Assembly (NCBI GenBank): GCA_964619365.1
Contig: CAZUDQ010000003.1
Location: forward strand, 35,960-99,959
DNA from: an uncultured archaeon
GTDB taxonomy: Archaea > Altiarchaeota > Altiarchaeia > JAFGQM01
Direction of reading: 5' to 3'
Length of the DNA stretch: 64,000 nucleotides
The notes under the pieces are model-generated. The model worked only from the letters and a program-made list of their open reading frames with translations, did not search any database and had not been told where the DNA came from. This document shows, piece after piece, positions 11,307 to 34,298 of this stretch (the first letter of the stretch is position 1; each line of letters begins with the position of its first letter). A program made the translations under genes and the position numbers.

Positions 11307-11472
11307 TGTTCCACCTAATAATTTTAGTTGCTCATCTTAACGCCGCAAACTATAAAAACACGACGGTTTTTGGGCGTTTTTTAAGTCCTTGCCATCACCA
11401 ACAAACTTAAGCTATTAATAAGTGGCAAAAAATCTAAACCCTTTTTACCAATAATAATCAATATACCAGATT

Positions 11473-12985: not shown

Positions 12986-13081
12986 TGTTATATCGACTTT
13001 TATTTTGGGCCGCCTAAATTAATGGTAAGTTAATAAAAATATGAAACAGCCCAGTTTCTAAATAAAAACTTATAATAAAAT

Positions 13082-13804
13082 ATGAAAAGAATTAGTTATT
13101 TTGTCCTTGTATCAGGCATTCTCCTGCTTATAGCACCATTGGCAGAGTCTCAGATAGACCTAACAGAGTATGACTCTGCCGTACTACAGATTGATGAGCT
13201 GACAAGTGAGGCCAATCGCGCGCGCGCAAACTACCAAAATGACCTCATGATTGAGCTTCTCAGACAAAAAAGGGCACTAGAAGAAGAGCTCAATACCCCC
13301 AAAATGTCTTATCTGGCCACATATTCAGAATTGATTATTCCGCTAGATGAGGCCGAGTACCTAATAGGGGAATTTTCATCAGTATTTTCAAAGGATTTTA
13401 GCGCTGGTGATATAAAATCGATAAAAGACAGACTAACGGCATCTGAAGCATTTTTTTCCTCTGGAAACTATTCAGGGGCAAAAGAAGCACTGCCCGCTTT
13501 ATCAGAAATCATAATCTTACCAAGTTCTCTTGCAGAAGAAGCAGGCGCAACTGCTCGCGAGGATACATTATCAAAAGGCGATAGTCGCATCCTCCTTGAC
13601 GCCGCAGATCTTTTTGATGAAGCATCAGAAGAGTATTTACTTGGCAAAAATTCCTTTCCCAAGGCAAGAGAACTTACAAACTCCGGAATAAGTCTTGTAC
13701 TGCGTTCAAAAGAAGTTCCCGAGCAGTTACCTTATTACATACTCTTTGTGGCAATACCTGTAATAGTCGCTGGCATTCTACTATTCTACGGGCTAAAAAA
13801 ATAA
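13082..13804 (+). CDS. secreted, C-terminally anchored helical protein
   Basis: N-terminal signal peptide; C-terminal TM helix ending in KK. Confidence 0.7.
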   Translation: MKRISYFVLVSGILLLIAPLAESQIDLTEYDSAVLQIDELTSEANRARANYQNDLMIELLRQKRALEEELNTPKMSYLATYSELIIPLDEAEYLIGEFSSVFSKDFSAGDIKSIKDRLTASEAFFSSGNYSGAKEALPALSEIIILPSSLAEEAGATAREDTLSKGDSRILLDAADLFDEASEEYLLGKNSFPKARELTNSGISLVLRSKEVPEQLPYYILFVAIPVIVAGILLFYGLKK

Positions 13805-17919: not shown

Positions 17920-18150
17920 ATGAGGATACTCAAATCTAGGAAAGGACAGACAGACTCTGTTTTTAAGCTGGCACTTGTCGTGATAATAATCGCGGCTGTG
18001 CTTGCAGTGGTTTCATATATGATGGGCTCGGCATGGACCGGGGCTGAAGAGCTTGCAACAGGAGCTGCAACAGCATCAGAGAGTGTTTCTGAAGCAACAG
18101 ATTGCATGATAACTGGCAATTGCGACGAGGGCGGATTATCAGGAAGCTAA
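17920..18150 (+). CDS. type IV pilin-like protein (class III signal peptide)
   Basis: MRILKSRKG|QTDSVFKLALVVIIIAAVLAVV; start reassigned to ATG 17920. Confidence 0.85.
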   Translation: MRILKSRKGQTDSVFKLALVVIIIAAVLAVVSYMMGSAWTGAEELATGAATASESVSEATDCMITGNCDEGGLSGS

Positions 18151-18153
18151 AAA

Positions 18154-18327
18154 GTGCACTCCATTGTCTTTACTCTGGCTCTTGTCACAATAGTTTCCTT
18201 TCTTGTAATCTGCGCCCTTATGGTGATTTTTGCAGACACCCAAGAAATTGCGTTTGGTGCAATAAACGATTCTGAAGAGGCAAGAACTTACGCACTCCAA
18301 AAAGCAGCAGATATAATACAAAAATGA
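18154..18327 (+). CDS. 57-aa leaderless pilin-like membrane protein (not in ORF track)
   Basis: GTG start 3 nt after the upstream stop; TGA overlaps the next ATG (ATGA). MHSIVFTLALVTIVSFLVICALMVIFADTQEIAFGAINDSEEARTYALQKAADIIQK. Confidence 0.75.
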   Translation: MHSIVFTLALVTIVSFLVICALMVIFADTQEIAFGAINDSEEARTYALQKAADIIQK

Positions 18328-18524
18328 TACCAAAGGGAAGAAAAGGGGTAGCAGACGAAGTCTTTAAAATAGCTCTTGCAATAATAATTGTTGCAGCGGT
18401 TCTTGGGATTGTCGCAACCGTTCTTTCAGAGATAAAAGAGGACAGTGTCTCTGCGATAAACGCAACAGGCTCGGCCTTTAGAAACTTCACCGCGCGGATA
18501 GTCAATAAAACCGCAAGCTTCTAA
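18324..18524 (+). CDS. type IV pilin-like protein (class III signal peptide)
   Basis: MIPKGRKG|VADEVFKIALAIIIVAAVLGIV; paralog of the 17920 pilin. Confidence 0.85.
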   Translation: MIPKGRKGVADEVFKIALAIIIVAAVLGIVATVLSEIKEDSVSAINATGSAFRNFTARIVNKTASF

Positions 18525-18527
18525 AGA

Positions 18528-18782
18528 ATGGATTTGCCGTTTAAGATTGCAGCTGCGATTATTTTAGGGATGGGAGTCCTGTGCGCACTAATGCTTTTTA
18601 GCTCGCATATTATTTCAGCTGGAACAACACTTGAGGATACTGAAAAAACACTTTTTTCAGATTCACAGGACGATGCAACAAAGCTTCTTTTGGACGGGGA
18701 AAAAGAAACGGACAAAGGCTATGTTATACTAGATGGTGGAATGCTTCCAGATGGTGGTGGACAACTAAACAGGCTTTTTTAG
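18528..18782 (+). CDS. leaderless pilin-like membrane protein
   Basis: MDLPFKIAAAIILGMGVLCALML; shares V(I/L)CALM with the 18154 ORF. Confidence 0.7.
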   Translation: MDLPFKIAAAIILGMGVLCALMLFSSHIISAGTTLEDTEKTLFSDSQDDATKLLLDGEKETDKGYVILDGGMLPDGGGQLNRLF

Positions 18783-18783
18783 C

Positions 18784-19233
18784 ATGCAGATTAACCGACG
18801 AGGGAGCTCGGTTCTTGAAGCCCCCTTTATGATTCTTGCAAGCGTTCTTGTCATCGTCTTTTGCCTTTGGATAGGAATTAATTCGATGGAAAAATTTGTC
18901 AAGGGTTCAGAGGAGCAGGCGGCAGCACAGGCTGCAAGTGACCTTTATGAGGCCGCAAGGATAATCTCACTAGGGTATGACAAGAATTCAATGCGATATT
19001 TTTTGTCTGTTCCTGATTGTTGCAGGATAAAGGTGGACGGAGAACTGAGTGCAATTTTTGTCAACGAATCTGACGGGGAAAGAATAATTACAGGGCCAAT
19101 GGCAATATCTGGAGTACGAATAGAATCGGCATGCGGTCCAATTGAATCTGGAGAACACAACCTACTACTAGAATACTGGGAAGATGGGCAAAAAGTTATT
19201 ATTTCAAAGGAAGGGGCAGTCTGCAGCGATTGA
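18784..19233 (+). CDS. minor pilin-like protein (class III signal peptide)
   Basis: MQINRRG|SSVLEAPFMILASVLVIVFCLW followed by a beta-rich domain. Confidence 0.8.
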   Translation: MQINRRGSSVLEAPFMILASVLVIVFCLWIGINSMEKFVKGSEEQAAAQAASDLYEAARIISLGYDKNSMRYFLSVPDCCRIKVDGELSAIFVNESDGERIITGPMAISGVRIESACGPIESGEHNLLLEYWEDGQKVIISKEGAVCSD

Positions 19234-20959
19234 CCTGATGGTATTCTTGTTGCTTTCATCTCTTGCCATTTCTTACCTCTCCTTACAATCGGCACAATTA
19301 TCATCAAGATCCCAACGCAGGATGGAAACTGAAAGCTTAAACGAAATGGCTGAAATAAGCCTTTCGGCGCTTCTTTCCTCTAAGGCAGATATTGAGATTA
19401 GCGTCCTGCAGAAAAAAGCGGCAAGTAGGATAAACTCCCCCGTTACAAATGATGCAAGAAAGATACTTGATTACTTAAAACTGGCTGAGGAGGCCATCTC
19501 AGAAATAGAAAGCAGTAATGATATCTCGGACAATCCCCATATAGCATACATCCGACATAAGTTTTCAGAGATAGATTCGTATTTAGGGCTTGCCCAGGAC
19601 TCACTGATTGGATTTAGCGCTTCCCAGATAGACTCAGCCCTTAGTGATTCTCTTGCGCCTTGCCAAGCCCTTGGCGAGCTTTCCTCAATTTTCTCCTCAT
19701 TTGTCGGGTTTGATTTTAGTTGCGATACCATAACCTCTGAAATACTAAGTTATCTTGGAGAGGAACTCTCAAGTGTCGCTATGGATTCAAATGACCTTGT
19801 TTCGTTTATAGATGAAGCAGAAAGCCTATTGGACGTGGAGATTAAGGAAAAAGCAAGAGAACTACGCTGCAAACTTTCAGACATTAGGCAAGCCATTGAG
19901 TCCGTATTTGGCTATATCGAAGTGGGAGTCAACCCCGATGTGTCGCCTCTCGAACTTTTCCCGGTTAAGCTCAACGCAGAAAGTTACACCATAAGGCAAG
20001 TCACAGAAGACGCGCTAACGAGTGGAGATTTCTTTGCAAAAACAGACTGGGAAAGGACTGCAATCGCGTCAGTCGCTTTAACATATTTTAGGGGAAAAAA
20101 CCTAACAACAGGCCTATTCGAAAAAGGCTTTTTGGAGGAAAACATACATTCCCAGCCCAGTGGAGATTTGATTGGCGAGTACATTGAAATCACTCCAGAA
20201 CATTCTCTTCAAAAAGAGGACAATATGACTCTTAGCGGGGTCTACACAGAGGACAAAAGTATTTCCCTAAAAGCAAAGATAACTGGTGCAGGTTATCTTG
20301 GACTGCAAGCGGCATTTTTTGGAAAGGAACTTGGTTCTGGCAGGCAAAAGACCGTATATTTTGAAGGAGGGGAATACATACTAAACAGCACAGCATACAT
20401 CACAAACGCGCACGAAAGGACATATAATGGAAGCGCGGTTAAAGGTGTTACAAGAGAATCTCCCATAAGCGTTTCTGAAGAAGTTTTTAGTCATAAGGAC
20501 ATACTCACTCCGGAAATAAATTTTGAAGGAAACTTAATCAAAACAACAATAACGCGACCCTTTTCCTCAGTCTTTTGGCTTGAACTGGGAAACGCCACAT
20601 TTGAGCCGCAAAACTATGCGTTCCAAATAGAGCATATTATTGAAACAAAAAGCGGCGAGTATATAATAAACAGTTCTGTAGCCGACGGCGAGTATGACCC
20701 GAATGCCGAAAAGTCAGCAGTTTTAGGCGCCCTTGCAATAGACAAAACAAGCATCTTTCCCGAGCTGAAGAGTTCTATTGAATCAGAGATAAAGCGCATA
20801 ATACCAAATTATAGTTATTCTTTTAATCTCTCTTGCCCCTGCAAGGAGGGAATTTATTTTGGCAGTGGAAGCCCGCAAGGAAGATATGGTATTGCAAGAA
20901 GGCATTTTTGGATTGATGACTGCGAGTGTGATGTGACACTTATTCTCTGGAGGGACTAG
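19184..20959 (+). CDS. large minor pilin-like protein with helical insertion
   Basis: QRKG|QSAAIDLMVFLLLSSLAI; ends in the beta strand VTLILWRD, similar to the C-terminus of the 21388 protein. Confidence 0.8.
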   Translation: MGKKLLFQRKGQSAAIDLMVFLLLSSLAISYLSLQSAQLSSRSQRRMETESLNEMAEISLSALLSSKADIEISVLQKKAASRINSPVTNDARKILDYLKLAEEAISEIESSNDISDNPHIAYIRHKFSEIDSYLGLAQDSLIGFSASQIDSALSDSLAPCQALGELSSIFSSFVGFDFSCDTITSEILSYLGEELSSVAMDSNDLVSFIDEAESLLDVEIKEKARELRCKLSDIRQAIESVFGYIEVGVNPDVSPLELFPVKLNAESYTIRQVTEDALTSGDFFAKTDWERTAIASVALTYFRGKNLTTGLFEKGFLEENIHSQPSGDLIGEYIEITPEHSLQKEDNMTLSGVYTEDKSISLKAKITGAGYLGLQAAFFGKELGSGRQKTVYFEGGEYILNSTAYITNAHERTYNGSAVKGVTRESPISVSEEVFSHKDILTPEINFEGNLIKTTITRPFSSVFWLELGNATFEPQNYAFQIEHIIETKSGEYIINSSVADGEYDPNAEKSAVLGALAIDKTSIFPELKSSIESEIKRIIPNYSYSFNLSCPCKEGIYFGSGSPQGRYGIARRHFWIDDCECDVTLILWRD

Positions 20960-20960
20960 A

Positions 20961-21425
20961 TTGAAATTCAGATACTTAAACAAAAAAGGATGGCTCGTCT
21001 GGTCCTGGTCAAAAGCAGGCATGCTAATCATATTTTTTGCCTGTATGGTAATGCTTCTTTGTGCGTTTTCCCTATTGTCAACAGCTTTTCTTGCAGATTC
21101 AGCTCAAAAGCTCTCCTCAGACATTGTTAATTCCTTGCTTATGGTTTCCTCTTCAGAAGACGGCAGCTATCTTGAGATAAATCTTCCTCCTTCGGTACAA
21201 GGCGAACCTTATCATATGACGGCAAACAAGACTGAATCCGGTCTTGTTGCAATAATAGTTTCTGTACAGACTCAAAAAGGCAAGATGATTGGAATCAGCG
21301 TCTTGCCAACCCCATATCACAATGCTTCCTTAGGCATTTTGCATCAATCAGATTCAAAGGAACACAAATTATGTGCCAATATACACAATGATACAACATA
21401 TCTTTATCCCAAGGGATGTTTTTAA
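20961..21425 (+). CDS. minor pilin-like protein (class III signal peptide)
   Basis: NKKG|WLVWSWSKAGMLIIFFACMVMLL; INLPPSVQGEPY motif. Confidence 0.78.
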   Translation: MKFRYLNKKGWLVWSWSKAGMLIIFFACMVMLLCAFSLLSTAFLADSAQKLSSDIVNSLLMVSSSEDGSYLEINLPPSVQGEPYHMTANKTESGLVAIIVSVQTQKGKMIGISVLPTPYHNASLGILHQSDSKEHKLCANIHNDTTYLYPKGCF

Positions 21426-21873
21426 TTCGAAAAAAGGGCAGCTTGGGCCACAGGCTCTTGAGGATTTGCCGATAAGCGCCATAGGCTTGATATGTGTGAT
21501 TATCCTTGTCATGCTCCTTCTAAAAGTAGGCCTTGGTGCGATAATCCCTTCAGATATAAGCGAAGCGTCTTCTTTTGGGCAAAGAGCACTTTTCCTTCTT
21601 GTAAAATCCTTTTCAAGCAGTGAATCAAAAGGAATTTCATCATGGGCGATAGATGCGGCAAAAGTCTCCGAAATGAATCACAAAAACTATCCACTCAAAG
21701 GCGTTCTCGCATCCCCCCAATACGGCTTTTTTGCGCAAGTTAAATCCTGTTGCGGTGAATGGAAGTTTGGAGGCAGTAAGGAGCCCGCATTATCATTTCA
21801 TGCGCCTGTTTCAGTCCTGTGCGAAGACAAACTCTGCGACGGCGATATAATATTAAGGATCTGGAAAAAATGA
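21388..21873 (+). CDS. minor pilin-like protein (class III signal peptide)
   Basis: SKKG|QLGPQALEDLPISAIGLICVIILVMLL; ends IILRIWKK; start position uncertain. Confidence 0.75.
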   Translation: MIQHIFIPRDVFNSKKGQLGPQALEDLPISAIGLICVIILVMLLLKVGLGAIIPSDISEASSFGQRALFLLVKSFSSSESKGISSWAIDAAKVSEMNHKNYPLKGVLASPQYGFFAQVKSCCGEWKFGGSKEPALSFHAPVSVLCEDKLCDGDIILRIWKK

Positions 21874-24467
21874 AAAAGAAAGGATATATCCCAGCATTTA
21901 GCATAATCGGCGTTGTGTTTTGCGTCATTGCAATCTCAGTATCGTTATTATGGGAACTTGGTTCTGCAGGAGACTTTGGAATCCACGCCCAGGATATCGC
22001 CTGGCTAAGGATGAATTCGGCAATAGAAAGTTTTGAAGAGGAGATACGAGACGATCTTTCGCGTACACTGGGTTTATGTGCAACAAAGGCCGGGCAGATA
22101 CCAGAAGGAACTACAATAAACCCTTATCTTGAGATGGAGGAAAGGGTGGGCTGGGAAAAAATCCTTGAGAATATATCCCTGTGCACTAAGGAAAATACCT
22201 TATCCCATATAAGGGATATTGCTCATGAAAAAGGCGATGACTGGGCCCTTTTCACTTTTGATTCGAACATCACCCTTGCAATTGATTCTACCCAAAAAAT
22301 TGAGTTCTTGCCAGATCTTGAGGGCCCCTGGATGTCTGGAAAAATAAAAATCCCGGAAATTACAATAACTGCAAAGGAAGGCTGGAGCGCACGATTTACA
22401 AATAGGACGATAAATGCCAGGATATCAGGTCGTTTACATGACATGTACCTTCGTGCAAGAGACTTTCATTCCAAGTATCCAGACCGGCTTAGCTGGACCT
22501 TAAGCGGAGCGCTCTACCTGCGTGCATACCTTTCAGCTTACATAACAGGAGGAACCGGACCATACCTTTATGAGGGCGATTTTCAAACAGACCCGGTCGC
22601 AACAATACTTTTTGGAAAAATTGAGGAAATAGAAGAGTTAATAAAAGACCCACTGGATTCAATAACAGGGATTGGGGCGATACCCGCTGCGACATGGCTT
22701 TCGGAGTGGGAGTTTTTAAGCGAGCCTTCCTTTTTGCCGCCGGGAGTCGATATGGACATTTCAGATTATGACCAGGCAAAAACGGCGATTATGGGAACTG
22801 AGAACCCGGAAGAAGTCTTTGAAGAAACATGCGAAGGAGATTCTTCGGGAAATTGTTTATCCTCTACAGACCTAGACACTTTAGAGGAAGAAGCACTTGC
22901 CACGGCAAAAGAAATGGAGCGTTATGAAAAAGTTAGAGATTTGTCAGATGACTGGCTTTCGAGCTATTCAACAACAAGGTATCATAAATGTGACAATAAA
23001 GACACCTGTGAAGATGACTTAGAGGATTGCAATGAAGATTGCTGCGAGATGTATGAAGATTGCGAAGACGACTTAGATGATTGCAATGATGATGTTGATG
23101 AATGTGAGGACGACTGTGACGACTTAAGAGAGGATTGCAAGGACCTCAAAAAGGAGTGCAATCAATATAAAAAGGATTGTAAGGCCTGCAAAAAGGAATA
23201 CTGTAAACCAGATTATGAATACTGCAAAGACCAATATGGCGGATACCCTGATGACAAAAAAGGCGCATGCTACTATAGCGCCCTTGATACGCTTTTTGGC
23301 AGCAGTGATGAAGACATCTGCGATGATTTTAGGGATGATTCAAAAGAGGTACTTAGCGCGATAACTTCAGCCCTGGAAAACGGGCAGTCACAGACATGCA
23401 AGTATAAGATAAAAGAAGGGAGCGACGAAGCAGGAGGCAACAAAATTTTTAATTCAAATGAATATGGTCTCGGGTTTAATGATGTCGACACCTATTGTTC
23501 CTCAGCGATAACTTCAGTCACGGAACTTGCCTCAATTGTTAAAAATATTCTCACAGAAGAAAAACTAGGTTCAGATTCATGTTCAAAAGATAATTCAGGC
23601 GAGTGCATTTCAAATGATAACTGTGGAGACGCAGGAAATTGTAATGTTCGTTGTAATTTTGTTTCTTGCTCGCGAGGAAATGACATTTATCAATGTGTGG
23701 GCGATTATCAATCAGGAAATAGAGTCGTCACATGCAGTAAGGGAAGAGATGTTTTTGATACCTGTAGATGTAGATGCCGTCCGACAATAAAAATTGTGGA
23801 AGAGACGCAAAAACCAGTGCAAAAAGTATATGAATTTGCAAAAAAGACGTATGACGCTTTAGAATTGCATTATGAAGCAACAAATGACCAAATAGAGGTT
23901 CTTTCCAATATTAAAAAGTTTACATCAGCAGTAGAGTCTCTTGATAAAAATAAAGATTCTTTTGACATCTATTCAAAAATAACTCCGATTTATGTTAAGT
24001 ATGATTCTGGGGACGGTGCGCATTGTTATGTTAATCCGACCTATATGGCACGGGAGGGGGGTGTATGTGCGGACTATCTTGAATCCGCAGGGCTTTATAG
24101 CGCCCAAATTGCCGCCGCAGCCCTAATAACTGTATTTAGCGGCGGGGCCGGAACGCCACTTCTTGACTACGCAAAAGACTTCTTTCCAGTGATATTTGAG
24201 ACAAGTGCCAAATTTAGCATAACAGAAAGCATAACAGACGACAACTCACGAAATATACTTGTCAATATCGCAGAAGGTGGTGGCGAGCTTTACACATACG
24301 CTCCGCTCGAATTCGAGATATACAAAGAACATGAGTTTAAGGTAGAGTCGCTTACTCTGGGGCGAATAATCTTATATCTTTACCTTCCCATAACACAAGG
24401 TGGAATCGGACGAGCAATAGAACGGATGGGTGCAAAAAACGAAGGCGAGAGTTGTCCTACAGAGTAA
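21870..24467 (+). CDS. giant (865 aa) pilin-like surface protein with Cys-heptad stalk and hydrophobic hairpin
   Basis: MKKKG|YIPAFSIIGVVFCVIAI from ATG 21870 (ATGA overlap); Cys-rich acidic repeat; late AAAALITVFSGGAGTP segment. Confidence 0.8.
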   Translation: MKKKGYIPAFSIIGVVFCVIAISVSLLWELGSAGDFGIHAQDIAWLRMNSAIESFEEEIRDDLSRTLGLCATKAGQIPEGTTINPYLEMEERVGWEKILENISLCTKENTLSHIRDIAHEKGDDWALFTFDSNITLAIDSTQKIEFLPDLEGPWMSGKIKIPEITITAKEGWSARFTNRTINARISGRLHDMYLRARDFHSKYPDRLSWTLSGALYLRAYLSAYITGGTGPYLYEGDFQTDPVATILFGKIEEIEELIKDPLDSITGIGAIPAATWLSEWEFLSEPSFLPPGVDMDISDYDQAKTAIMGTENPEEVFEETCEGDSSGNCLSSTDLDTLEEEALATAKEMERYEKVRDLSDDWLSSYSTTRYHKCDNKDTCEDDLEDCNEDCCEMYEDCEDDLDDCNDDVDECEDDCDDLREDCKDLKKECNQYKKDCKACKKEYCKPDYEYCKDQYGGYPDDKKGACYYSALDTLFGSSDEDICDDFRDDSKEVLSAITSALENGQSQTCKYKIKEGSDEAGGNKIFNSNEYGLGFNDVDTYCSSAITSVTELASIVKNILTEEKLGSDSCSKDNSGECISNDNCGDAGNCNVRCNFVSCSRGNDIYQCVGDYQSGNRVVTCSKGRDVFDTCRCRCRPTIKIVEETQKPVQKVYEFAKKTYDALELHYEATNDQIEVLSNIKKFTSAVESLDKNKDSFDIYSKITPIYVKYDSGDGAHCYVNPTYMAREGGVCADYLESAGLYSAQIAAAALITVFSGGAGTPLLDYAKDFFPVIFETSAKFSITESITDDNSRNILVNIAEGGGELYTYAPLEFEIYKEHEFKVESLTLGRIILYLYLPITQGGIGRAIERMGAKNEGESCPTE

Positions 24468-24469
24468 CA

Positions 24470-27400
24470 CTACTCCTTATTGTTGGTGTTGCATCCCTCG
24501 TTTGTTGAGACCCACTCAGTCGTCTCCTCAGCGTACTTATCCCCCGCAAGCCACATAGAGCCAACAGCTGCCGCGGGCGCTGCAAGACGGGCTGTCCAAC
24601 TCAGGATTTTATTTCCAGAGTTTCCTGCAAACATTCCAGTTTTAAGGTAGTTTCCCACTCTACTGGAAATTGATGTGCTACCCTTTGGAACATAAGTGTA
24701 ACTCTTGCCGTCGTTTATAGATTTTAAATTTGTGACTTCGGCGGTTTTTCCATCACTATAAGTCACTTTAAATGTTTCGCCTTTCTCAAGCGGTACCTCC
24801 ATTGGAGTGGACTCATAAATAGTATCACCCATAGCATATATGCTGTCTGAAGTAACTTTTTCATAGTAATTACCATCACCAAGAGCCATATATTTATCAG
24901 GTATTGCTTTTCCAGACCCAATAAGATCAACCTGAACATCACTACTTACTTCTTTCCAAACATCTCCCTGATGCACTGTTACTTTAGCTCCACCTACTTC
25001 CTTAACTGGGACGGTTATATCAGTAGTCTTTGTACCTGCAGGCACATTTACTGACTCACCATCAACCGTAGTCACACCTTTTACAGTACTTGTAGCGACT
25101 TTTGAAACAGGTTGGGCAAATGTGCTTCCAAGGGCCCCTCCGATGTACATCCCAGTACCAAATCCTGAAAAGAAGTTCTTTGTATCTGCGTCACCTATGA
25201 ACATGCTTGTGACCGAAGTTCCAAGTGAAAGGGTTTGAGTAAGAGAACCAAAACCAGTTGCACCACCCAACAACCCGAGTGCCGCTCCAGTTCCTGCTCC
25301 AACCCAGAATGAACCCGAACCAAACATACTAAGCGAGTCGCCTTCCTCTTCTTCCATGCAGCTCACATCGCCGCAATGGCAGTCGTTGTCATAGCCGTCA
25401 TCACAAGTCTTTGGGTTGCTACGCGGGTCTTCACTTTCTGTTGGAACGCCTTCAGTTTGTATATTGTACCATGCCCACTGGTTTACACCAGAATAAGCGC
25501 ACAGATAGACGGTTCCGTCACACTGTGCCGTCTGGCATTCATGATCCTTGTTGCAGGCGACGTCATCCTCAGTTACCCATTTATAACCATTATTTGATGT
25601 CGTTGTATTTGCAGATGAACCGCTGTTCCACTCAAGTTTCCTGCATATTTTATAATTACCGTCGTCAACTCCTGCTGTCGTCCCGCCATCTGCGTCCCAG
25701 ACCATGTAACATGGCGTATTGGCGTTGCAGGTACAAAGGTCGCCTGAACCTTCTCCTGTGCGGTCTACAAGGCCGTCACAGTTATTATCCCAGCCATCAT
25801 TGCAGATTTCAACGGTGTTTCTATATTCAGCTGGAAGGTCGCTGTCACAATTAAGGCACATCCCATAATACTTATCTTCCTCACCTGAACTGTAATAGAC
25901 TATGCAGGCTAGGTCTTCATCAGTTATTCTGCCATCGGAATTAACGTCAGCACAGTCAAGCTTATAACCAGTAATTTGCTTTTTGCTAATAAGCATCATA
26001 AGGATTTCATCAACTTCATCAATCTTGAGGTCCCCGTTAATATCGCCCTTTATCCCACGGCAGGCATCAAGACTGTAAATCTCTAAACAGTAAGACGGAA
26101 TTACCTGACCTGATGCAAGAAGCGTATCCGGATTAGAAAGCTCCATTCCTAAAAACATCTGCGCACAGTAACTGTCATCAGTATTTATTACACCGTTTTG
26201 GTCAAAGTCTGTTGCCGCGTAGACTTCAACAGGTAAGTATATCCCACGCTCCTCAACTTTTATCAATTTGTTTAGAAGAGCAATATCGTCATCGCCTATT
26301 TTTTTATCGCCATCAAGGTCGCCTGCAAGTGGCGATTCTAAATAAAGGTCAAAGCATGCCCCGCCACTCATGTCACCCGGCCATTTTCCTGAAACTACAT
26401 TTGTAAGGCAAATTAAATCATCTTCGTCAACATCAGAATCAAGGTCGTAGTCTGCACACTTGGCGTATTCTGCACGCGCGGCCTGAGTCAACGGAAGAAT
26501 CAGATTCTCAAGTATTGCAATATCATCGGTATCAAGTTGTTCATTCCCGTTAAGATCGCCCACACGGTCTTCACAAATTATTGTCCCTTCGATTATCCCG
26601 CCTTTTGCAGATTCAAAACAGTTTATGAGCATTGTTTCACTGACCTGCAGGATATTTGATTTGTAATCTGAAACGCATTTTCGTACTTCCTCCATGCCGT
26701 CACACGTCGTTTCATTTGTTGCAAGAGGGCATGTTCTTGACTTTGCGCGGGAGATATCCGCGACATAAATCTTCTCATAGGTCACAATATCCTGTCCATC
26801 TGCAAAAATGCTAACCTTGTATATTCCCTCACCGTTTGGCGCCTTAAAACTCGCGTCGTACCCGAGTTCGCCCAAATCCCAGGTCAGTTTTTTAAGACTG
26901 CCATAGACATTCGCATAAAGCATCTCAAGTCCAGGTATCTCTTGTCCTTCAAATTCAGGGTATGCAAAAATCTCAAAATACTCATCAGCCAAAAGAACAG
27001 GCTTGTCGACGTCTGTTCTCATAAGAAGATTTTCACTGGCAGAATCAGATTCAAAATAAGTCACGAAATCACCACCATATACTGTCCCATCCTTTTCCAT
27101 GATTACCTTTACTAGGGCGCGGTATTCTCCTTTGAAAGGAACATTTAACTCAACTTTCCAGGTTTCTGATAAATTGTCAAAACTAAGATTCTTTGGTTCT
27201 GATGTTATGAGTGCGTCACCGTCAAGGTAGTATACCTGAACGGATTTTGTCAGAATGTTAAAATCTTTTGAGTCTTTTACATCAATATCATATTCAAGCC
27301 TGATTGGTTGGGTCTTCTTTATGGGTAAGATAGGCTCGACACTAAGATTTTCTGAAGTGTAAGCACTGGTGTTTACACTATACGCAAGGGGAAACGTGCC

Positions 27401-27556
27401 GGTGTATCCATCATACTGTGCCTGTATTATTATAGTGTAGGCCCCCTCTCCTTCTGGACCGTAACCAACAGCAGTCCAGCGGGCAAGTGAAAACGGTATC
27501 TGTGCAAACAAAAAAACGACTATAAATACTAGTGCTAGAGTTTTGGCATATTCCAT
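24470..27556 (-). CDS. secreted dockerin-repeat protein with variable Gly-rich C-terminal payload, paralog 1
   Basis: Signal peptide, beta-rich (Ig-like) domains, three dockerin-like pairs (e.g. GDINGDLKIDEVD...ADVNSDGRITDED), EICNDGWDNNCDGLVD, Gly-zipper helices. Confidence 0.85.
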   Translation of the reverse strand: MEYAKTLALVFIVVFLFAQIPFSLARWTAVGYGPEGEGAYTIIIQAQYDGYTGTFPLAYSVNTSAYTSENLSVEPILPIKKTQPIRLEYDIDVKDSKDFNILTKSVQVYYLDGDALITSEPKNLSFDNLSETWKVELNVPFKGEYRALVKVIMEKDGTVYGGDFVTYFESDSASENLLMRTDVDKPVLLADEYFEIFAYPEFEGQEIPGLEMLYANVYGSLKKLTWDLGELGYDASFKAPNGEGIYKVSIFADGQDIVTYEKIYVADISRAKSRTCPLATNETTCDGMEEVRKCVSDYKSNILQVSETMLINCFESAKGGIIEGTIICEDRVGDLNGNEQLDTDDIAILENLILPLTQAARAEYAKCADYDLDSDVDEDDLICLTNVVSGKWPGDMSGGACFDLYLESPLAGDLDGDKKIGDDDIALLNKLIKVEERGIYLPVEVYAATDFDQNGVINTDDSYCAQMFLGMELSNPDTLLASGQVIPSYCLEIYSLDACRGIKGDINGDLKIDEVDEILMMLISKKQITGYKLDCADVNSDGRITDEDLACIVYYSSGEEDKYYGMCLNCDSDLPAEYRNTVEICNDGWDNNCDGLVDRTGEGSGDLCTCNANTPCYMVWDADGGTTAGVDDGNYKICRKLEWNSGSSANTTTSNNGYKWVTEDDVACNKDHECQTAQCDGTVYLCAYSGVNQWAWYNIQTEGVPTESEDPRSNPKTCDDGYDNDCHCGDVSCMEEEEGDSLSMFGSGSFWVGAGTGAALGLLGGATGFGSLTQTLSLGTSVTSMFIGDADTKNFFSGFGTGMYIGGALGSTFAQPVSKVATSTVKGVTTVDGESVNVPAGTKTTDITVPVKEVGGAKVTVHQGDVWKEVSSDVQVDLIGSGKAIPDKYMALGDGNYYEKVTSDSIYAMGDTIYESTPMEVPLEKGETFKVTYSDGKTAEVTNLKSINDGKSYTYVPKGSTSISSRVGNYLKTGMFAGNSGNKILSWTARLAAPAAAVGSMWLAGDKYAEETTEWVSTNEGCNTNNKE

Positions 27557-27598
27557 TTTTAAATTTAATAGATAATTATTGCAGGAACGCTTAAAAAG

Positions 27599-30500
27599 TT
27601 AGCAACTAGTATCCCTTGATACCCATTCTGCTGTACTTTTTGCGTAGTATGTCGCAGCTTTTGATGAGGTAAATGCGCTAAACGCAGGTATAAATGCGCG
27701 ACCAAATATAAGTTTTCCTGCAGTAAAGGCAAAACTTGTCTGGTCCATGCCCCCCCAAGGACTTATCGTATTTAGCATACCCTTACCAAAGTCAAGCATA
27801 CCTTGTCCTACACCTTTGGCCGCCCCAGTCCAAGTAGCACCTTCGCCAAGGCTAGTGAAACCTTTACCAATGCTGGATGCACCAGCCTTAATGCCATCCC
27901 AGCCAGATTGAGCAAGATCCCCCATATCACCCCATAGTGTGGATTCCTCAGACATACTAAAATACTCAAAATTCATGTCAGGCATTTGGAAACTACTATC
28001 AGCAAAACCAAATGATTCACTCAGTCCACTAAACCCTGGGAAGGAAGTAGTACTACTCGCCCCACTTTCACCTCCAATACCAATGTAGTTAAGCGCGCTA
28101 GAGTAGGTATCCATACTTGTTAAAGAATCAAAACCCTTACCTATCCCGCTTATCGTGCTCATAACACCATCTTTAACCGAGAGTGCAGCATCCTTAACTG
28201 CGCTTGCAGCACTCGAAATACCCTCTGTGACAGAGCTTATCGCTTGTGAGCCCAGTTGAGTGGTTCCTGCAACAAGACCCTTTTCCATAAGTGTGTCAAA
28301 AGAATTGATAAGAATATCCTTCACACCAGCCCCATTAAGCAGGCCGCCTACGCCGCATCCCATTGATATCCCACCCATAGCAGCGGATAGTTCAGCTGGC
28401 CCCCCTGCAAAGGTGTTGATAAGTGAGACAAGGCTTGCAGCAAGTGAAATTAAAAGTGTTGCCCATCCAGGTAGGAATATACTTGCTATTAAAAATAATG
28501 CAAAAAAGAGCCAGAAAAGCCAGCTATCAAAAATACTTCCTTGTTCCTCAACAGCGCATTTCATATCTCCGCATATGCAGTCGTTGTCATAGCCGTCATC
28601 ACAAAGTTTTGGCTCGGCTTTGGAATCATCAGTCTCTGTTGGCAAGTCCCCAGGATTCTCATACCAAAGCCATCCGCCACCATCAAATGCACAGTAAAAT
28701 CTTGAATCGGCGCATTGAGCATATTCACATTCTTTGTCTTCATTACAAACAAGGGTTTTTGGACTTACCCACTCGAATTGGTCCTCTTCCTTGTCTATAG
28801 CACTTTCATTTACCCTCCAAGATTCCTTTCTACATACAAGGACATTTGCATCGTTTATGCCCGCTATGGTACCACCGTCTTCATCCCAGACCATAGCGCA
28901 CGGCGTGTTTGAAGTGCATGAGCAGAAATCCCCCCCCGTTCCTGTGGTCCCGGTTCTGTCAATCAGGCCGTCACAGTCGTTGTCCCATCCATCATTGCAG
29001 ATTTCCATGATATCAAGGTACTCGCGCGGGGTGTATTCATCACATTTCAGGCAGGCGTAATATTGTTCCATATCGCCTGCAAGATAAGAACTTACACAGA
29101 ATATGTCTTCAGAGGACATCTGATTGTCCTTATTGACATCAGAACAGTTCATGTCATATCCTGTTATCTTACCCTCGACAATAAGAGTTATTAAAATCTC
29201 ATCAATTTCATCAATTTTATAGTCGCCGTTAATATCACCCTTAACACTGTTGCAAGAGTCAAGATGATAGATTTCCAGACAGCTTGTGGGTATTGTAACA
29301 ACATTACCAATAAGGTTATTCGTGTTGTTTACTTCCACTCCTTCAAACTTCTTTGCACAGATTGCGTCATATGAATCAATCCGTCCGCTTTGGTCAAAGT
29401 CTGCCGCACTAAGAATTCGCTCGTGCATTAAGATGCCACCCGTATCTGCGTCAACTAGTTTTCGCATAAGGATAAGATCAACCTCGGTTATCTTCCTGTT
29501 GCCATCAAGGTCGCCTGCAAGGGGCGAGTCAAGCACCATGTCAAAACAAACCCCGCCATTTAGGTCGCCCCACCATTTACCCGCAATGACGTTTGTCATA
29601 CAGGTCAAATCTGCTTCGTCAACATCAGAATCGCGGTCGTAATCAGCACATGACAAGTAGTCTCTTCTTGAAGGCTGTGGCAATGGAAGTATTATAGTCT
29701 GGAGTATTGCAGCATCACTCACAGTTAGTTTGCCGTCACCATTTAAATCTCCTTTATTCCATCCACATATCACTGCGCTGACAACAGTATCTCCCCTTAC
29801 CGATTTAAAACAAGAGATAAGGTCTGTTTCAGTATAATTGACACCCATCCCAGCTTTTGAATCAAAAACACAACGCCGTACATCGCGCATGTCCTCGCAA
29901 CTGGAATTTCTCACTAAAGGACAAGTTGGTGCTTTTGCCTGGGAAGTATCTACAATATATATTGTTTCTGACGAGGAAAAATCTTGTCCCTTTCCATAGA
30001 AATTGAATGCATATGCACCTTCTAAGGTGGGTGCTGAGAAATCAGAAGAATAAACCCCGTCCTTTTCATTCCAAACAAGGGCGCGGTCGTTTCCATTGAT
30101 ATTGGCCCTAAAGATAATGAATTCCTTCAGGACATTTCCGCCAAAAATTGGCAGAAGGGTTGTTGAGAACGCTTCTGTTGGCGTTAGTACTTTAGGACTT
30201 ATAGTATATTGCAATAATAAATCAGTCGAGGCGCTTTCGGATTCAAGATAACTTGCAAAATCCCCCAAATACGTCATATCGCCTTTTTGTGCAGTTACAG
30301 AAAGAAGCACTTTATAGTCACCCTTTAAAGGGGGCATCACAGTTACTTCCCAAAAGCCTGTTTCCGGGTTCTTGGAAAGTATGTTACTTGCATTTGCAAC
30401 AAGGGTTGTGCCATCGACAAAATAGAGTGACATGTTGTTTTCAAGCATGTCAAAGTCAGTGGAATTATCAATATGGATGATATACCCTAGGTTTATAGGA

Positions 30501-30751
30501 GATTTTTTGGAGGGAGTATACGCGGGACTTACACTTAATCCCTCACTTGTCGTTGTTTTCCCTCTGACGCGCAGGTCTATTGGGTATGCGCCCTCAAAAC
30601 CATCATAAATAGCCTTTATGAGAATTGTATAAAGACCTGCATCATCCGGGCTTTGCGCTACAGAGAGCCATTCGCCAAGACCAAAAGGAATCTGGGCTAG
30701 GATAAAGAGCAGTATTATTACTCCAACCTTGGGTCCGTCAAAATAGCGCAT
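27599..30751 (-). CDS. secreted dockerin-repeat protein with variable membrane-active C-terminal payload, paralog 2
   Basis: Colinear with paralog 1 up to CDDGYDNDCxCGDxxC, then hydrophobic helices and amphipathic repeats; ends YAKSTAEWVSRDTSC. Confidence 0.85.
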   Translation of the reverse strand: MRYFDGPKVGVIILLFILAQIPFGLGEWLSVAQSPDDAGLYTILIKAIYDGFEGAYPIDLRVRGKTTTSEGLSVSPAYTPSKKSPINLGYIIHIDNSTDFDMLENNMSLYFVDGTTLVANASNILSKNPETGFWEVTVMPPLKGDYKVLLSVTAQKGDMTYLGDFASYLESESASTDLLLQYTISPKVLTPTEAFSTTLLPIFGGNVLKEFIIFRANINGNDRALVWNEKDGVYSSDFSAPTLEGAYAFNFYGKGQDFSSSETIYIVDTSQAKAPTCPLVRNSSCEDMRDVRRCVFDSKAGMGVNYTETDLISCFKSVRGDTVVSAVICGWNKGDLNGDGKLTVSDAAILQTIILPLPQPSRRDYLSCADYDRDSDVDEADLTCMTNVIAGKWWGDLNGGVCFDMVLDSPLAGDLDGNRKITEVDLILMRKLVDADTGGILMHERILSAADFDQSGRIDSYDAICAKKFEGVEVNNTNNLIGNVVTIPTSCLEIYHLDSCNSVKGDINGDYKIDEIDEILITLIVEGKITGYDMNCSDVNKDNQMSSEDIFCVSSYLAGDMEQYYACLKCDEYTPREYLDIMEICNDGWDNDCDGLIDRTGTTGTGGDFCSCTSNTPCAMVWDEDGGTIAGINDANVLVCRKESWRVNESAIDKEEDQFEWVSPKTLVCNEDKECEYAQCADSRFYCAFDGGGWLWYENPGDLPTETDDSKAEPKLCDDGYDNDCICGDMKCAVEEQGSIFDSWLFWLFFALFLIASIFLPGWATLLISLAASLVSLINTFAGGPAELSAAMGGISMGCGVGGLLNGAGVKDILINSFDTLMEKGLVAGTTQLGSQAISSVTEGISSAASAVKDAALSVKDGVMSTISGIGKGFDSLTSMDTYSSALNYIGIGGESGASSTTSFPGFSGLSESFGFADSSFQMPDMNFEYFSMSEESTLWGDMGDLAQSGWDGIKAGASSIGKGFTSLGEGATWTGAAKGVGQGMLDFGKGMLNTISPWGGMDQTSFAFTAGKLIFGRAFIPAFSAFTSSKAATYYAKSTAEWVSRDTSC

Positions 30752-30796
30752 TTTCTTAATGAATCTTAACCTATATTATAATTAATTTAAAGGATA

Positions 30797-31120
30797 TTAT
30801 CTTATATAATCTGTTGATTCAGATTTTTTTGCCACAGTCACTGTTTTCTTTTTCATTTCCTTATCCATCTTCGTCAGAGATTCACTAAGCGCCTTTAAGA
30901 GACCTTTGGCAGTTATTGGTGAAAGAACAACCTTTTCTACAGGCTTTTGAGTAGTCATATCAATAAAGACAATTTGTAAATGGCCTTCTTTCATGATTTT
31001 GCCTTTATCATCCTTGCCACTTTTTATCGTATGTGCGACCACAATCTCATCGGAATATATCGGACGGACCGTGCTTGTCGCAAGGTTTTGCTGAATGTTT
31101 CTTATAGTGTTGTTTTCCAT
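30797..31120 (-). CDS. DUF3467-like small protein
   Basis: PIYSD...FID...VVLSPITAKGLLKAL pattern; family call from memory of the motif. Confidence 0.6.
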   Translation of the reverse strand: MENNTIRNIQQNLATSTVRPIYSDEIVVAHTIKSGKDDKGKIMKEGHLQIVFIDMTTQKPVEKVVLSPITAKGLLKALSESLTKMDKEMKKKTVTVAKKSESTDYIR

Positions 31121-31165
31121 ACAGTTTTAAAGCGTACATAAATTTAAAGTGATAGGGAATACGCT

Positions 31166-32428
31166 TTAAAGACCGAGGTAAAAAAGAAGGGTCGGAAGAA
31201 TCAGGCAGCCCATACAATGTGTTCTTGAGACGCCAGTTAGTTGTGGTATGAGGCCTACTGCAGTAGAAACAAGCACAATAAGTATTCCCAGAGGGCCCGC
31301 CCCCCAAAAGACCATGCTAAAAACAAACACAAGTCCAAAAAAGGAGAGTTTCTTAAGGTCAAGCTCATTTGAAATCTTACAAAAGAATAGTCCAAGGCGT
31401 ATGTGGGCAAGATATGCGAGGAATCCTGCGGCGAGCATACTCCCGCAAAGCAAGAAGAGAAGGTCTAAGGAGAGTACTCCAACCAAATTTTCGATAATAA
31501 CACTAGTTCCGCTTCTTGGATTGCCGATTAAGTAAAGCGAAAAGATTGAAAACATGGCATCTGCAGTATTTAACGAGCCGACAATAGTCATGAATTTTCT
31601 CATGGCAGTTTCATCACCATCTTCTCCAAGACCGCTTTGTTTCTTTTTTCCTGAAATGAGATCTCCAAACTCCTGGAACATTATCCCTATCTGTGAGGGG
31701 GACATCGCAGGAAGTATCCCGACAAGAAGCCCGCCGACAGCGCCCAAATATGAATTTCTCCAAAGGCTCTTTTCAGACAATGTTACATCAACTGTGACGT
31801 CTTGGGTTGCCTTTGCAGTTTTTGCAAAGATTCCAGTCAGTAGTGCTGAGACACCAAACATACCTGAAAAAAGAGGCAGGAAAACCTGGGAACTTGAAAG
31901 TGACAAAAGGTCAAAACACGTATAACCAAGGTAACCAGATACGCTAAACACAATAATCGCCCAAAGAATCTTTTCAAACTTCCTTTCCCGCATTATCATG
32001 AAGATTATGACAAAGACAAGAAGGGGAACAACGGCTTCCTTTACAAGGCCCTTTGCGGCGGGCACGACTAAAAAAGCGATAGGAAGAAGACTCAATGAAG
32101 CTATTGTGCCATAAAGGCTTGCAAGACCTGTTATCCGTATTGCCTCCATTGCGCGCCCCGACAAAAAGAGTTTGTGTGCCGGAAGCATGGAAAGAACAGT
32201 ATCCTCATCAGGAACGCCGAGAAATATCGAAGGTATAAAATCTATAAAAGTTTGTGTTGTTGCCATGGAGACTAAAAAGACTGAAAAAGGCACAAGCGGG
32301 AAATTAAGGATTCCTGCAAGAGAGAGCATCATCACCCCCACATTATTAACATGAAGTCCCGGGAGCAAGCCACAGGCTATCCCTGCCGCTATACCCGCAA
32401 AGAAAAAGGCGATTAGTTCAGTAAGCAA
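31166..32428 (-). CDS. archaeal TctA-family (tripartite tricarboxylate transporter) permease
   Basis: GLLPGLHVN, FIPSIFLGVP, LPAH, GNPRSG, RTHCMG. Confidence 0.88.
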   Translation of the reverse strand: MLTELIAFFFAGIAAGIACGLLPGLHVNNVGVMMLSLAGILNFPLVPFSVFLVSMATTQTFIDFIPSIFLGVPDEDTVLSMLPAHKLFLSGRAMEAIRITGLASLYGTIASLSLLPIAFLVVPAAKGLVKEAVVPLLVFVIIFMIMRERKFEKILWAIIVFSVSGYLGYTCFDLLSLSSSQVFLPLFSGMFGVSALLTGIFAKTAKATQDVTVDVTLSEKSLWRNSYLGAVGGLLVGILPAMSPSQIGIMFQEFGDLISGKKKQSGLGEDGDETAMRKFMTIVGSLNTADAMFSIFSLYLIGNPRSGTSVIIENLVGVLSLDLLFLLCGSMLAAGFLAYLAHIRLGLFFCKISNELDLKKLSFFGLVFVFSMVFWGAGPLGILIVLVSTAVGLIPQLTGVSRTHCMGCLILPTLLFYLGL

Positions 32429-32987: not shown

Positions 32988-34298
32988 ATGAGTCTTAGGA
33001 AGATAAATCGTGAGAGGGATAAAAAGCATAAGTTCTCGATAGGGTCAAAGAGCCATTTTTCAAAACTAAAAAAAGGTTCACACAATCAAGCTCCCGCTCC
33101 AGAAAGTAACGAATCTGATGGTTACATCCACCCAAAAAAGGTCTATGTAGAAGGCGAAGGTCTTAGCCAAAACCTCAAGATGATTCTTGTTATAGCTATA
33201 ATCGCTGTTGCCGTTGTTGGCATAGAGCTAATACTCTGGGCAGGGGATCAGGATGCTGGTCCAAATACCCAAAGCAATTTAAATTCCACAGATAACAGTT
33301 CATCGAATGATACCCCTCTTGTCAATCTTACGTTATTAGAATCGGAGGATGACTATGTAGCGCCAAAAGCAGACTTATTAGCAAGTTCAATCGAGCTTTC
33401 CCCAGAGGAGCTCAGCGAAGGTGAAGTCGTTTCCATAACAGCAGAGTTTGAGAATAACGGAGAACTTGATGCGGAGAATGTAAGCTTAAACATATACGCC
33501 GGAGGAACCGAGATATATTCTGAAATAGTGACTATTCGCAGTGGGGAAAAGACCGAAATAGAAACTTCCTGGATTTCAGAAGGTGAAGGCTCAAAGACGA
33601 TAAAAGCCGAGGCCGACCCTGGAGACAATATTGATGAATCAGATGAGGGGAACAATGAAAAATCAGATTCCATTTCAATAGAAAAAAGCATATTCCTGGA
33701 CAGTTCAGATGAGTTTACATACCGTGGAAGGATTCTTGAGCTTGGTGATATATACGCGATAAAAAAGCTCATCTCAAACGATAATGATGCTTACTGTGGT
33801 GAGGACATGAATATTTTCTCGCTTTCAAAAAAGGACTCTCATCACTATTACCTTGATGTCCACACAAGCATTTATCGCAAGACAAATTATGCTGGCAACG
33901 AGGCTTTACTCCTTGCCGACGGCTCATGCAATTGGAACGGAGGGAGCAACATAATTTCTGGTACCGCAGGACATGTATTCAACGGTCCGCTTATGGGGCT
34001 TGGTCTAGGGTTTGAAGGCAGCAAACTTGTTGTAAAAGACCAAAACGGAAAAGAGGCAAGTGTCAGTTCAGGAGATAGCGCAGTAAAGTCTATAACACCA
34101 ATTGGCATAAAAATCGCGGATTGGCCCGAAGACGAACTTAATCTTTATACGACAAGCAAGGCAAATGGCCTTTTCCCGGAAGAATTCTATATTATAGAAG
34201 GCGGAAGGCGCATATATCTTTACCCCCTTGCATGGAATCCCGCGACAAAAGAGGCAAAAGTTGCTGTTGGCTACCAGTTTGAGATAACAACAGGGTAA
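32988..34298 (+). CDS. membrane-anchored CARDB-domain surface protein
   Basis: Basic N-terminus and one TM, then DLLASSI...ITAEFENNG...ADPGDNIDESDEGNN (CARDB). Confidence 0.8.
   Translation: MSLRKINRERDKKHKFSIGSKSHFSKLKKGSHNQAPAPESNESDGYIHPKKVYVEGEGLSQNLKMILVIAIIAVAVVGIELILWAGDQDAGPNTQSNLNSTDNSSSNDTPLVNLTLLESEDDYVAPKADLLASSIELSPEELSEGEVVSITAEFENNGELDAENVSLNIYAGGTEIYSEIVTIRSGEKTEIETSWISEGEGSKTIKAEADPGDNIDESDEGNNEKSDSISIEKSIFLDSSDEFTYRGRILELGDIYAIKKLISNDNDAYCGEDMNIFSLSKKDSHHYYLDVHTSIYRKTNYAGNEALLLADGSCNWNGGSNIISGTAGHVFNGPLMGLGLGFEGSKLVVKDQNGKEASVSSGDSAVKSITPIGIKIADWPEDELNLYTTSKANGLFPEEFYIIEGGRRIYLYPLAWNPATKEAKVAVGYQFEITTG

Follow-up and report, generated by a model that had tools for sequence, protein, structure and literature searches.

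The closest described counterparts of the locus reported here are the type IV filaments (T4F) of euryarchaeal clade 2, also called System 2, and the locus belongs to a phylum, Altiarchaeota, known for its hami. System 2 filaments combine long ATPases with one platform gene, large adhesin-like proteins, and pilins that may have or lack a class III signal peptide (SPIII) motif (PMC13705601), and clade 2 ATPase/TadC modules serve pilins encoded elsewhere (PMC4858521). We found no description of altiarchaeal T4F genes in the literature, and the supplementary tables of two censuses may list such loci. The string "altiarchae" has no occurrence in PMC13705601, where "dockerin" has none either, and stands only in the reference list of PMC4858521. 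The available text of PMC9938205 mentions no altiarchaeal pilin locus, and "dockerin" is absent among the matches listed for the literature on archaeal type IV pili (T4P) and class III signal peptides. Here, we analyzed a stretch of 64,000 nucleotides (nt), called the window below, from an Altiarchaeota metagenome-assembled genome (G000; 1.21 Mb, 17 contigs, 85% complete). The window is G000:C3:35960-99959, where C numbers are contigs; genomes from G001 onward are related genomes, and f1 and f4 are families, f4 being the sister family of f1. It holds nine pilin-like genes (p1 to p9; module 1, 17920-24467, + strand) that converge on a second set of genes including two dockerin proteins (d1 and d2; module 2, 24470-32428, - strand). 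On balance, these are probably two separate modules lying tail to tail, a pilin set and a TctA/107-amino-acid (aa)/dockerin unit. Judged by its gene features, module 1 appears to be the pilin set of an archaeal T4F in the System 2 style.

The nine open reading frames (ORFs) of module 1 fill their interval with intergenic gaps of +3, -4, +3, +1, -50, +1, -53, and -4 nt. Seven of the nine products carry class III leaders (RKG/Q, RKG/V, RRG/S, RKG/Q, KKG/W, KKG/Q, and KKG/Y, with the slash before residue +1), each followed by a hydrophobic helix with a Kyte-Doolittle 19-residue mean of 2.05-3.08. The other two, p2 and p4, are leaderless and open straight at the hydrophobic helix. An earlier note, written from the letters of this DNA, had described just such a tight operon of seven class III and two leaderless genes, and the coordinates, gaps, and leaders bear it out. 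A strict six-frame scan of the 1.21-Mb genome gave 32 N-termini combining [KR][KR]G with a helix; seven of these fall within this 6.5 kb, so the cluster is not a chance pattern. Six contigs of relatives keep the order of p1, p3, and p5-p9. The nine genes are supported, at the level of sequence, as a type IV pilin-like set.

No T2SSE, TadC-like, or Peptidase_A24 match was found on contig C3, in agreement with the earlier note, which had suggested looking for the machinery elsewhere in the genome. In G010:C13, a 734-aa T2SSE ATPase (E = 1e-22) and a 625-aa T2SSF platform protein (E = 2.3e-9) are followed by homologs of p7, p8, p6, and p9. The p7 homologs (E = 1e-8 and 2e-6) come directly after TadC, the p6 homologs are weak (E = 3e-8), and the N-terminus of p8 resembles, by eye, the product of a 149-aa gene (MKTKKGQIGPFSLD...). 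In G012, an orthologous ATPase/TadC pair (ATPase 83% identical) is divergent from p1/p3/p5-like genes, with the p5 homolog (E = 4e-14) beside the pair. Linkage to a T4F ATPase and a TadC/ArlJ-type platform is thus found in G010 (one operon) and G012 (divergent neighbor), not in the window. The p7-, p8-, p6-, and p9-like modules of G010 are tandemly duplicated behind the ATPase/TadC pair (G010:C13:50000-69900, L035) and interleaved with secreted 250-269-aa proteins without a Pfam match.

Among seven T2SSE matches in G000, two are long proteins (774 and 798 aa) that show homology to the G010 operon ATPase over their full length. One of these, at C8:13067-15391 (E = 4e-110, 38% identity), is adjacent to the best TadC match of the genome, at 11319-13082 (E = 1.4e-67). 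No pilin genes lie beside this pair, and contig C17 of G004 has the same arrangement. In a 12-sequence ATPase tree, the long ATPase on C1 groups with a different ortholog set (98/100), which points by elimination to the C8/C17 pair as the counterpart of the operon-linked ATPase. ATPases of this type measure 732-817 aa, with a T2SSE domain that begins at residue 375-442 and a single adjacent TadC. Peptidase_A24 has a single match in G000, at C2:71063-71935 (46.4 bits). Since the f4 homologs follow ATPase/TadC genes and the G000 counterparts are on C8, with the peptidase on C2, we read the operon as a pilin set served in trans. The missing machinery in the window is then ordinary, because trans-served pilins are described for euryarchaeal clade 2 (PMC4858521). 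The locus thereby offers a concrete, conserved pilin set for one altiarchaeal family, together with a candidate motor.

The two large proteins of module 2 are 38% identical along their full length. Both exceed the type I dockerin cutoff (PF00404, 22.9 bits) at 39.6 bits for d1 and 66.6 bits for d2, with Dockerin_1 E values of 5.8e-10 (two stretches) and 2.2e-18 (three stretches), so their naming as dockerin proteins was correct. Weaker MopE-like Cys-rich and EF-hand matches are present in both. A PDB sequence search with d2 returned only dockerin-type chains, and its first 735 residues have only 16 matching proteins in 5.8 billion clusters, all of them without a name. At an E cutoff of 0.1, cohesin (PF00963) had no match in the genome, which is 85% complete, nor any in p1-p9. 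After the last C.DG.DNDC motif, the d-type tails show an acidic linker, a W.FW motif plus hydrophobic helices, an SGF..G..VG motif, a spacer, a further hydrophobic helix, and a terminal Y.E...EW.....C. The spacer spans ~0-230 residues, is of low complexity, and differs in length and composition. Because the tails share these fixed elements, what the earlier note took for interchangeable membrane-inserting payloads is one conserved anchor module with a variable insert. In d2, the transmembrane (TM) segment has a 19-residue mean of 2.21; the counterpart region of d1 is Gly-rich and weakly hydrophobic, with a mean below 1.2 and no classical TM segment. Neither do the proteins look like polymorphic toxins: no toxin domain was found with Pfam or NCBIfam, the shared anchor motifs are kept in the tails, and no small immunity-like gene follows d1 or d2, the spaces being 2 nt from d1 to p9 and 42 nt from d2 to d1.

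Elsewhere in G000, four more members of the dockerin family are encoded, all of them 7-28 kb away from the closest class III match. Three measure 1584-1616 aa and have an N-terminal TM segment and a C-terminal domain unlike the d-type; the fourth measures 780 aa. We searched 41 genomes with p9 and d2, namely G000, seven f1 relatives, and 33 genomes of five other families, including 15 of f4. The d2 query matched 8 of 41 genomes, which are G000 and all seven f1 relatives, and 0 of the 33 in the other families. From their sequences, d1 and d2 belong to a predicted f1-specific multigene family of secreted Cys-rich surface proteins. Homologs of p9 were found in 11 of the 41 genomes, among them 3 of the 15 of f4. 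This difference in distribution speaks against the functional coupling of pilins and dockerin proteins that the earlier note had proposed, as do the separation of the two in G003 and the absence of a cohesin match.

The junction itself is as the earlier note gave it, with p9 stopping at 24467 and the convergent d1 at 24470, a gap of 2 nt. The distance from p9 to the d-type gene is 134 nt in G004, and in G001 the stop codons overlap. In G006 the gap is 1.36 kb and holds two PIN-domain genes (E = 9e-19 and 3e-13; G006:C29, L034 10663-11734), which lie exactly between the p9 homolog and the dockerin paralog. In G002 and G005 the paralog tail lies 0.7 and 0.2 kb from the p9 homolog, at contig ends, and G007 is uninformative because its contig stops 40 bp past p9. 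In G003, a gene for S-adenosylhomocysteine (AdoHcy) hydrolase, 66% identical to the window copy, is convergent on p9, and the paralog is on another contig behind a 107-aa ORF and a TctA-like ORF. In four genomes (G000, G004, G006, and G003), TctA, the 107-aa gene, and the paralog run in one direction, separated by short gaps. The 107-aa product has 66% identity in G004 and G006, and the G003 ORF at the same place is of equal length. Since d1 and d2 share the direction of TctA and the 107-aa gene and face the pilin genes tail to tail, they are not expected to be co-transcribed with the pilins. Contigs of four relatives (G007:C11, G005:C7, G002:C107, and G003:C52) break at or just inside dockerin-family genes. 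Such breaks fit a repeated multigene family and limit the synteny counts. The simplest reading of these sequences is that the p9-dockerin adjacency reflects gene order inherited within one family, and a tail-to-tail gene junction need not mean a functional link.

From this we infer the following for cleavage, assembly, subunit roles, and surface location. The prepilins would insert into the membrane by their N-terminal helix, and the sole detected A24 peptidase would remove the basic leader after Gly. The trans-encoded long ATPase and TadC, most likely those on C8, would then polymerize the pilins. The small p1-p4 (57-84 aa) are the likely filament subunits; p5, p7, and p8, with the large p6 and p9, are probably assembly primers and tip-located adhesins. 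Genes p2 and, in G000, p4 would be made leaderless, mimicking a processed pilin. The d1 and d2 proteins would be held by their conserved C-terminal membrane anchor with its variable spacer and would bear calcium-binding dockerin-type repeats. Such a filament, provided it is produced, would be a candidate organelle by which salt-lake Altiarchaeota attach.

Several points weigh against two separate modules with a pilin set served by C8. None of p1-p9 has a Pfam or NCBIfam match at E 0.1 or better, pilin models included, so the case for pilins is built on motifs and on gene context in relatives. Assignment of C8 as the partner rests partly on elimination: in the tree, G000_C8/G004_C17 is not resolved as sister to G010_C13/G012_C36 (80/87; C8 has a long branch and deviant composition). 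The C8 TadC also falls below the Pfam cutoff for T2SSF, with 20.2 against 25.2 bits. No RNA data set is among the eight sequencing-run rows that match the stretch. A d-type gene is convergent on p9 in six of seven informative f1 genomes, across three genera, and the d-type C-terminal tail is confined to copies beside the pilin operon. A functional tie between the modules is possible on both of these grounds. Furthermore, other archaeal T4P loci, as described in the available part of PMC4858521, repeatedly encode large secreted proteins that are Cys-rich and anchored at the C-terminus. On the synteny check proposed in the earlier note, most informative f1 genomes show adjacency; G003 and the f4 pilin carriers, which have no d2 match, do not.

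In a different view, d1 and d2 would be S-layer-like envelope proteins working with the filament, either as a collar or anchor at the envelope or as a surface matrix for attachment, and the convergent layout would mirror a true functional neighborhood. Adjacency and the restricted tail favor this view, and so do the predicted S-layer-like proteins with a C-terminal TM segment and conserved cysteines in several archaeal T4P loci (PMC4858521, available part). We consider it unlikely, with some room left for it: f4 has pilin genes and no paralog match, the modules lie apart in G003, and the paralogs, on the opposite strand, would not be co-transcribed with the pilins. Any binding between them would be purely conjectural. 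A little less probable again is that, in this hami-less family, the filament and dockerin proteins form one apparatus, in which the d-type protein would bind p6 or p9 by a dockerin contact that needs no cohesin, tethering the filament base or riding on the filament, and p2 would enter the fiber unprocessed.

There is a slim chance that the product of the nine genes is not a long adhesive filament but a structure for secretion or protein display, either a short pseudopilus or a surface assembly resembling a bindosome. Five of the nine products are not filament-sized pilins, and the other class III clusters of G000 (C4, C5, C7, and C10) could supply ordinary pili. T4F machineries functionalized by class III signal peptide binding proteins have also been proposed (PMC13705601, available text). 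Against this, the operon contains no substrate-binding-protein domain or ABC transporter, and a group of four small pilin paralogs is what one would sooner expect of filament subunits.

The two large pilin-like proteins, p6 and p9, have no relatives outside the class. Proteins of the p9 family near full size number nine in 5.8 billion clusters. A p9 profile search of 1.84 billion representatives gave 47 matches, many fragmentary, and the contigs with titles are all altiarchaeal. PDB sequence searches with p9 and p6 profiles gave nothing below E 0.28. A full-length model of p9 (11-row alignment) was poor, with a mean predicted local distance difference test (pLDDT) score of 54; within it, an N-terminal helix is accompanied by more helices and a five-strand sheet over residues 35-185 (pLDDT 60-84). 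The last 306 residues (35-row alignment) modeled better, at pLDDT 79, with long hairpins and a 50-residue helix. Foldseek found no match for this C-terminal model in PDB (best E 1.1, TM-score ≤0.13) or BFVD (best E 0.007, TM-score 0.09). Pore-former rows low in these lists were at chance level and were disregarded. Likeness of p9 to DUF7286 and of p6 to DUF7287 (protein-atlas 0.83 and 0.81) was below the bar of 0.9 and was rejected, as hidden Markov model searches did not confirm it (PF23957 in 0 of 61 genomes of the class; PF23958 without a match at the locus). The C-terminal domain of p9 contains a conserved AAAAL...SGGA helix. In the 35-row consensus, the segment Y.AQIAAA.LA...GG...Y...FFP is helical and falls where the model is most confident (pLDDT 87-91), and this near-invariant segment, as modeled, fits a structural core helix better than an insertion peptide. 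Window positions 22980-23280 (p9 residues ~370-470) encode an extremely acidic Cys-rich insert with runs of C, D, and E. It is far longer in G000 than in eight aligned f1-type homologs and is absent in one of two f4 homologs.

The 591-aa p6 has no Pfam, NCBIfam, or PDB sequence match. Read by eye from the alignment, its N-terminal half is Ser/Glu-rich and appears helical, and its C-terminal half is conserved and appears beta-rich; the protein-atlas model has a pLDDT of 0.41. The earlier note had seen hydrophobic segments far from the N-terminal anchor in all four large products. This stands for p9 (residues 747-765, 19-residue mean 1.65) and for d2, and fails for d1 and for p6; no 19-residue mean in the interior of p6 reaches 1.2. 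The second, terminal Cys pair of the supposed Cys-closed hydrophobic loop of p6 is missing in three of three aligned orthologs, in which the loop is polar.

These results bear on the reading given in the earlier note, in which a minor-pilin tip docks d1 and d2 through their dockerins and so presents exchangeable C-termini that insert into membranes, serving to contact or penetrate another cell. We regard it as very improbable: the dockerin modules are genuine, the C-terminal regions do vary in length and composition among paralogs and orthologs, and the genes are adjacent, but no cohesin was detected, the paralogs share homologous hydrophobic elements and vary in a low-complexity spacer, d1 and d2 would be tethered to the producer cell since each carries its own membrane anchor, the p6 loop shows neither hydrophobicity nor conservation, the p9 segment hardly varies and is modeled as a helix inside a confidently folded domain, and the window carries ordinary biosynthetic genes (CarAB, aspartate/ornithine carbamoyltransferases, geranylgeranylglyceryl phosphate [GGGP] synthase, and AdoHcy hydrolase) with no sign of a host. 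What survives of the tip complex is a fair analogy for minor pilins with two large subunits; the docking of d1 and d2 and the penetration of a host are unsupported. See Table 1 for all features.

Table 1. Genes of the two modules and selected neighbors, in window coordinates
Feature	Coordinates	Strand	Description	Remarks
p1	17920-18150	+	Small pilin, 76 aa, leader MRILKSRKG/Q	62-68% identity to homologs in 5 relatives' contigs; candidate major pilin
p2	18154-18327	+	Leaderless small pilin paralog, 57 aa, GTG start	Opens 4 residues before conserved VF(K/T)LA helix
p3	18324-18524	+	Small pilin, 66 aa, leader MIPKGRKG/V	44-52% identity to homologs in 5 relatives' contigs
p4	18528-18782	+	Small pilin paralog, 84 aa, leaderless in G000 only	Homologs in G004, G005, G006 with leaders
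p5	18784-19233	+	Minor pilin-like, 149 aa, leader MQINRRG/S	Homologs in 5 f1 contigs
p6	19184-20959	+	Large pilin-like, 591 aa, leader ...QRKG/Q	Adhesin candidate
p7	20961-21425	+	Minor pilin-like, 154 aa, TTG start, leader ...NKKG/W	G010 homologs
p8	21388-21873	+	Minor pilin-like, ~161 aa from ATG 21388 (ORF opens at GTG 21373), leader ...NSKKG/Q	G010 resemblance
p9	21870-24467	+	Giant pilin-like, 865 aa, leader MKKKG/Y	Head, acidic Cys-rich insert, C-terminal domain
d1	24470-27556	-	Secreted dockerin/Cys-rich surface protein, 1028 aa	Gly-rich C-terminal tail
d2	27599-30751	-	d1 paralog, 1050 aa	Three Dockerin_1 stretches, MopE-like Cys-rich match, TM 750-768
107-aa gene	30797-31120	-	Weak DUF3467 match below cutoff	Co-directional with d2; TctA-107aa-dockerin unit
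TctA	31166-32428	-	TctA-family transporter gene (E = 6e-52)	Head of co-directional unit
Carbamoyltransferase paralog	696-1601	+	Aspartate/ornithine carbamoyltransferase	With its paralog, flanks two 214-aa ORFs without Pfam match; near carAB
Carbamoyltransferase paralog	3357-4256	-	Aspartate/ornithine carbamoyltransferase	As above
CARDB protein	32988-34298	+	CARDB-domain protein, 436 aa	Between TctA and AdoHcy hydrolase
BatA/VWA pair	36900-41368	-	BatA/VWA/DUF7408 gene pair, 845 + 642 aa	Another predicted membrane/surface assembly

The four small proteins p1-p4 align as paralogs, with a common N-terminal [VF][FL]K[LI]A helix and short tails. The starts of p2 and p4 lie 3-4 residues before the conserved helix, which is where processed p1 and p3 would begin. 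A BLASTP search with p2 gave no match at 1e-3. G004 and G005 carry colinear leaderless ORFs that align with p2 end to end, so p2 is a conserved gene. The p4 homologs in G004, G005, and G006 have N(R/K)(R/K)(G/A) leaders, and in G000 the p4 frame is closed two codons upstream of the ATG; by sequence comparison, the G000 copy has lost its class III leader. For the question of whether leader processing is required for archaeal pilins to assemble, the leaderless pilin would offer a simple test case.

Most of the remaining class III N-termini of G000 cluster at other pilin loci (C4, C5, C7, and C10). At least five further clusters are present, at C4:79949-83007, C5:31994-35766, C7:73107-78431, C10:34423-39385, and C1:228352-234157, and several adjoin T2SSE ATPases or a TadC gene. 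They include a class III protein of 937 aa, encoded divergently from the second long ATPase, and, on C10, KGQ(T/L)ALEY-type N-termini.

The upstream flank of the operon varies by genus: G000 has PolB and an M20 peptidase there, and G004 and G006 have small Cys-rich ORFs together with a bPH_2 protein. In genus g4, the Cys-rich ORFs (147-166 aa) lie upstream of the operon at L032 15937-18896 (G004:C7) and L034 2905-3853 (G006:C29); the bPH_2 protein of G004, also upstream, measures 803 aa and has four bPH_2 domains. Neither is present upstream of the G000 operon. The upstream flank in the window comprises CarAB, two carbamoyltransferases, amidohydrolases, GGGP synthase, a wyosine radical-SAM enzyme, PolB, and the M20 peptidase, and the downstream flank comprises TctA, the CARDB protein, AdoHcy hydrolase, and the BatA/VWA genes. 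We rejected a mobile-element or island origin given these housekeeping flanks and a GC content that is even across the window (0.41-0.46). The eight matching run rows are all DNA contigs of salt-lake or other metagenomes, and contigs of two runs bridge the p9/d1 junction (X1 record 4 and X3 record 21). Run X1 may be the source sample. The run contigs differ from the stretch by one A>G change at 25888, in one low-depth contig.

Gln at +1, seen in three of the seven leaders of the operon, is also the +1 residue of Epd/EppA substrates. The Epd pili of Methanococcus maripaludis (System 1) share with our locus a multi-gene pilin cluster, minor pilins, and an adhesin-like component (PMC13705601, available text). 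The Epd cluster, however, has its own dedicated peptidase and machinery, whereas here these are in trans with one A24 peptidase. The priming complex of bacterial T4P and type II secretion systems with PilY1 resembles module 1 in that four or five non-major pilins and a very large subunit, encoded together, would prime assembly and sit at the tip (PMC13705601, available text). We detected no homology to it; p6 and p9 carry their own class III N-terminus, and the C-terminal fold of p9 is unmatched.

For module 2, the S-layer-like proteins of crenarchaeal T4P loci (arCOG05471 and others) are likewise large and secreted, with conserved cysteines and a C-terminal anchor, and are encoded beside pilins (PMC4858521, available part). 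Unlike these, which we compared by description, d1 and d2 have dockerin repeats, MopE-like motifs, and a multi-element anchor with a variable spacer. Cellulosomal cohesin-dockerin systems share the type I dockerin repeats above the Pfam cutoff, but G000 has no detected cohesin and the window no glycoside hydrolase or scaffoldin genes. The hami of Candidatus Altiarchaeum hamiconexum share the phylum and a large secreted appendage protein with a Sec-type N-terminus, as far as the available text of PMC4460559 describes. The hamus protein is reported to carry S_Layer_N, NosD, and FKBP_C domains (PMC4975002, available text); we rejected a relationship, as none of these was found in d1, d2, or p1-p9 and d2 had no match in the 33 non-f1 genomes.

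The closest likeness is to System 2, exemplified by the PilB3- and PilB4-type loci of Haloferax volcanii (PMC4858521, PMC13705601). Both have a long, N-terminally extended ATPase, a lone platform gene, pilins of which some carry the SPIII motif and others do not, large adhesin-like proteins, and pilin sets that can be encoded away from the ATPase and TadC. The locus differs in that p1-p9 match no Pfam or NCBIfam pilin family, and the likeness is one of gene features, not of placement in an ATPase tree. The earlier note knew of no described system with this combination; pilin genes together with large anchored Cys-rich secreted proteins are already in the literature (PMC4858521, available part). 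New elements are the altiarchaeal lineage, pilin families that escape recognition, a leaderless pilin that is conserved, and the presence of dockerins in the neighboring proteins.

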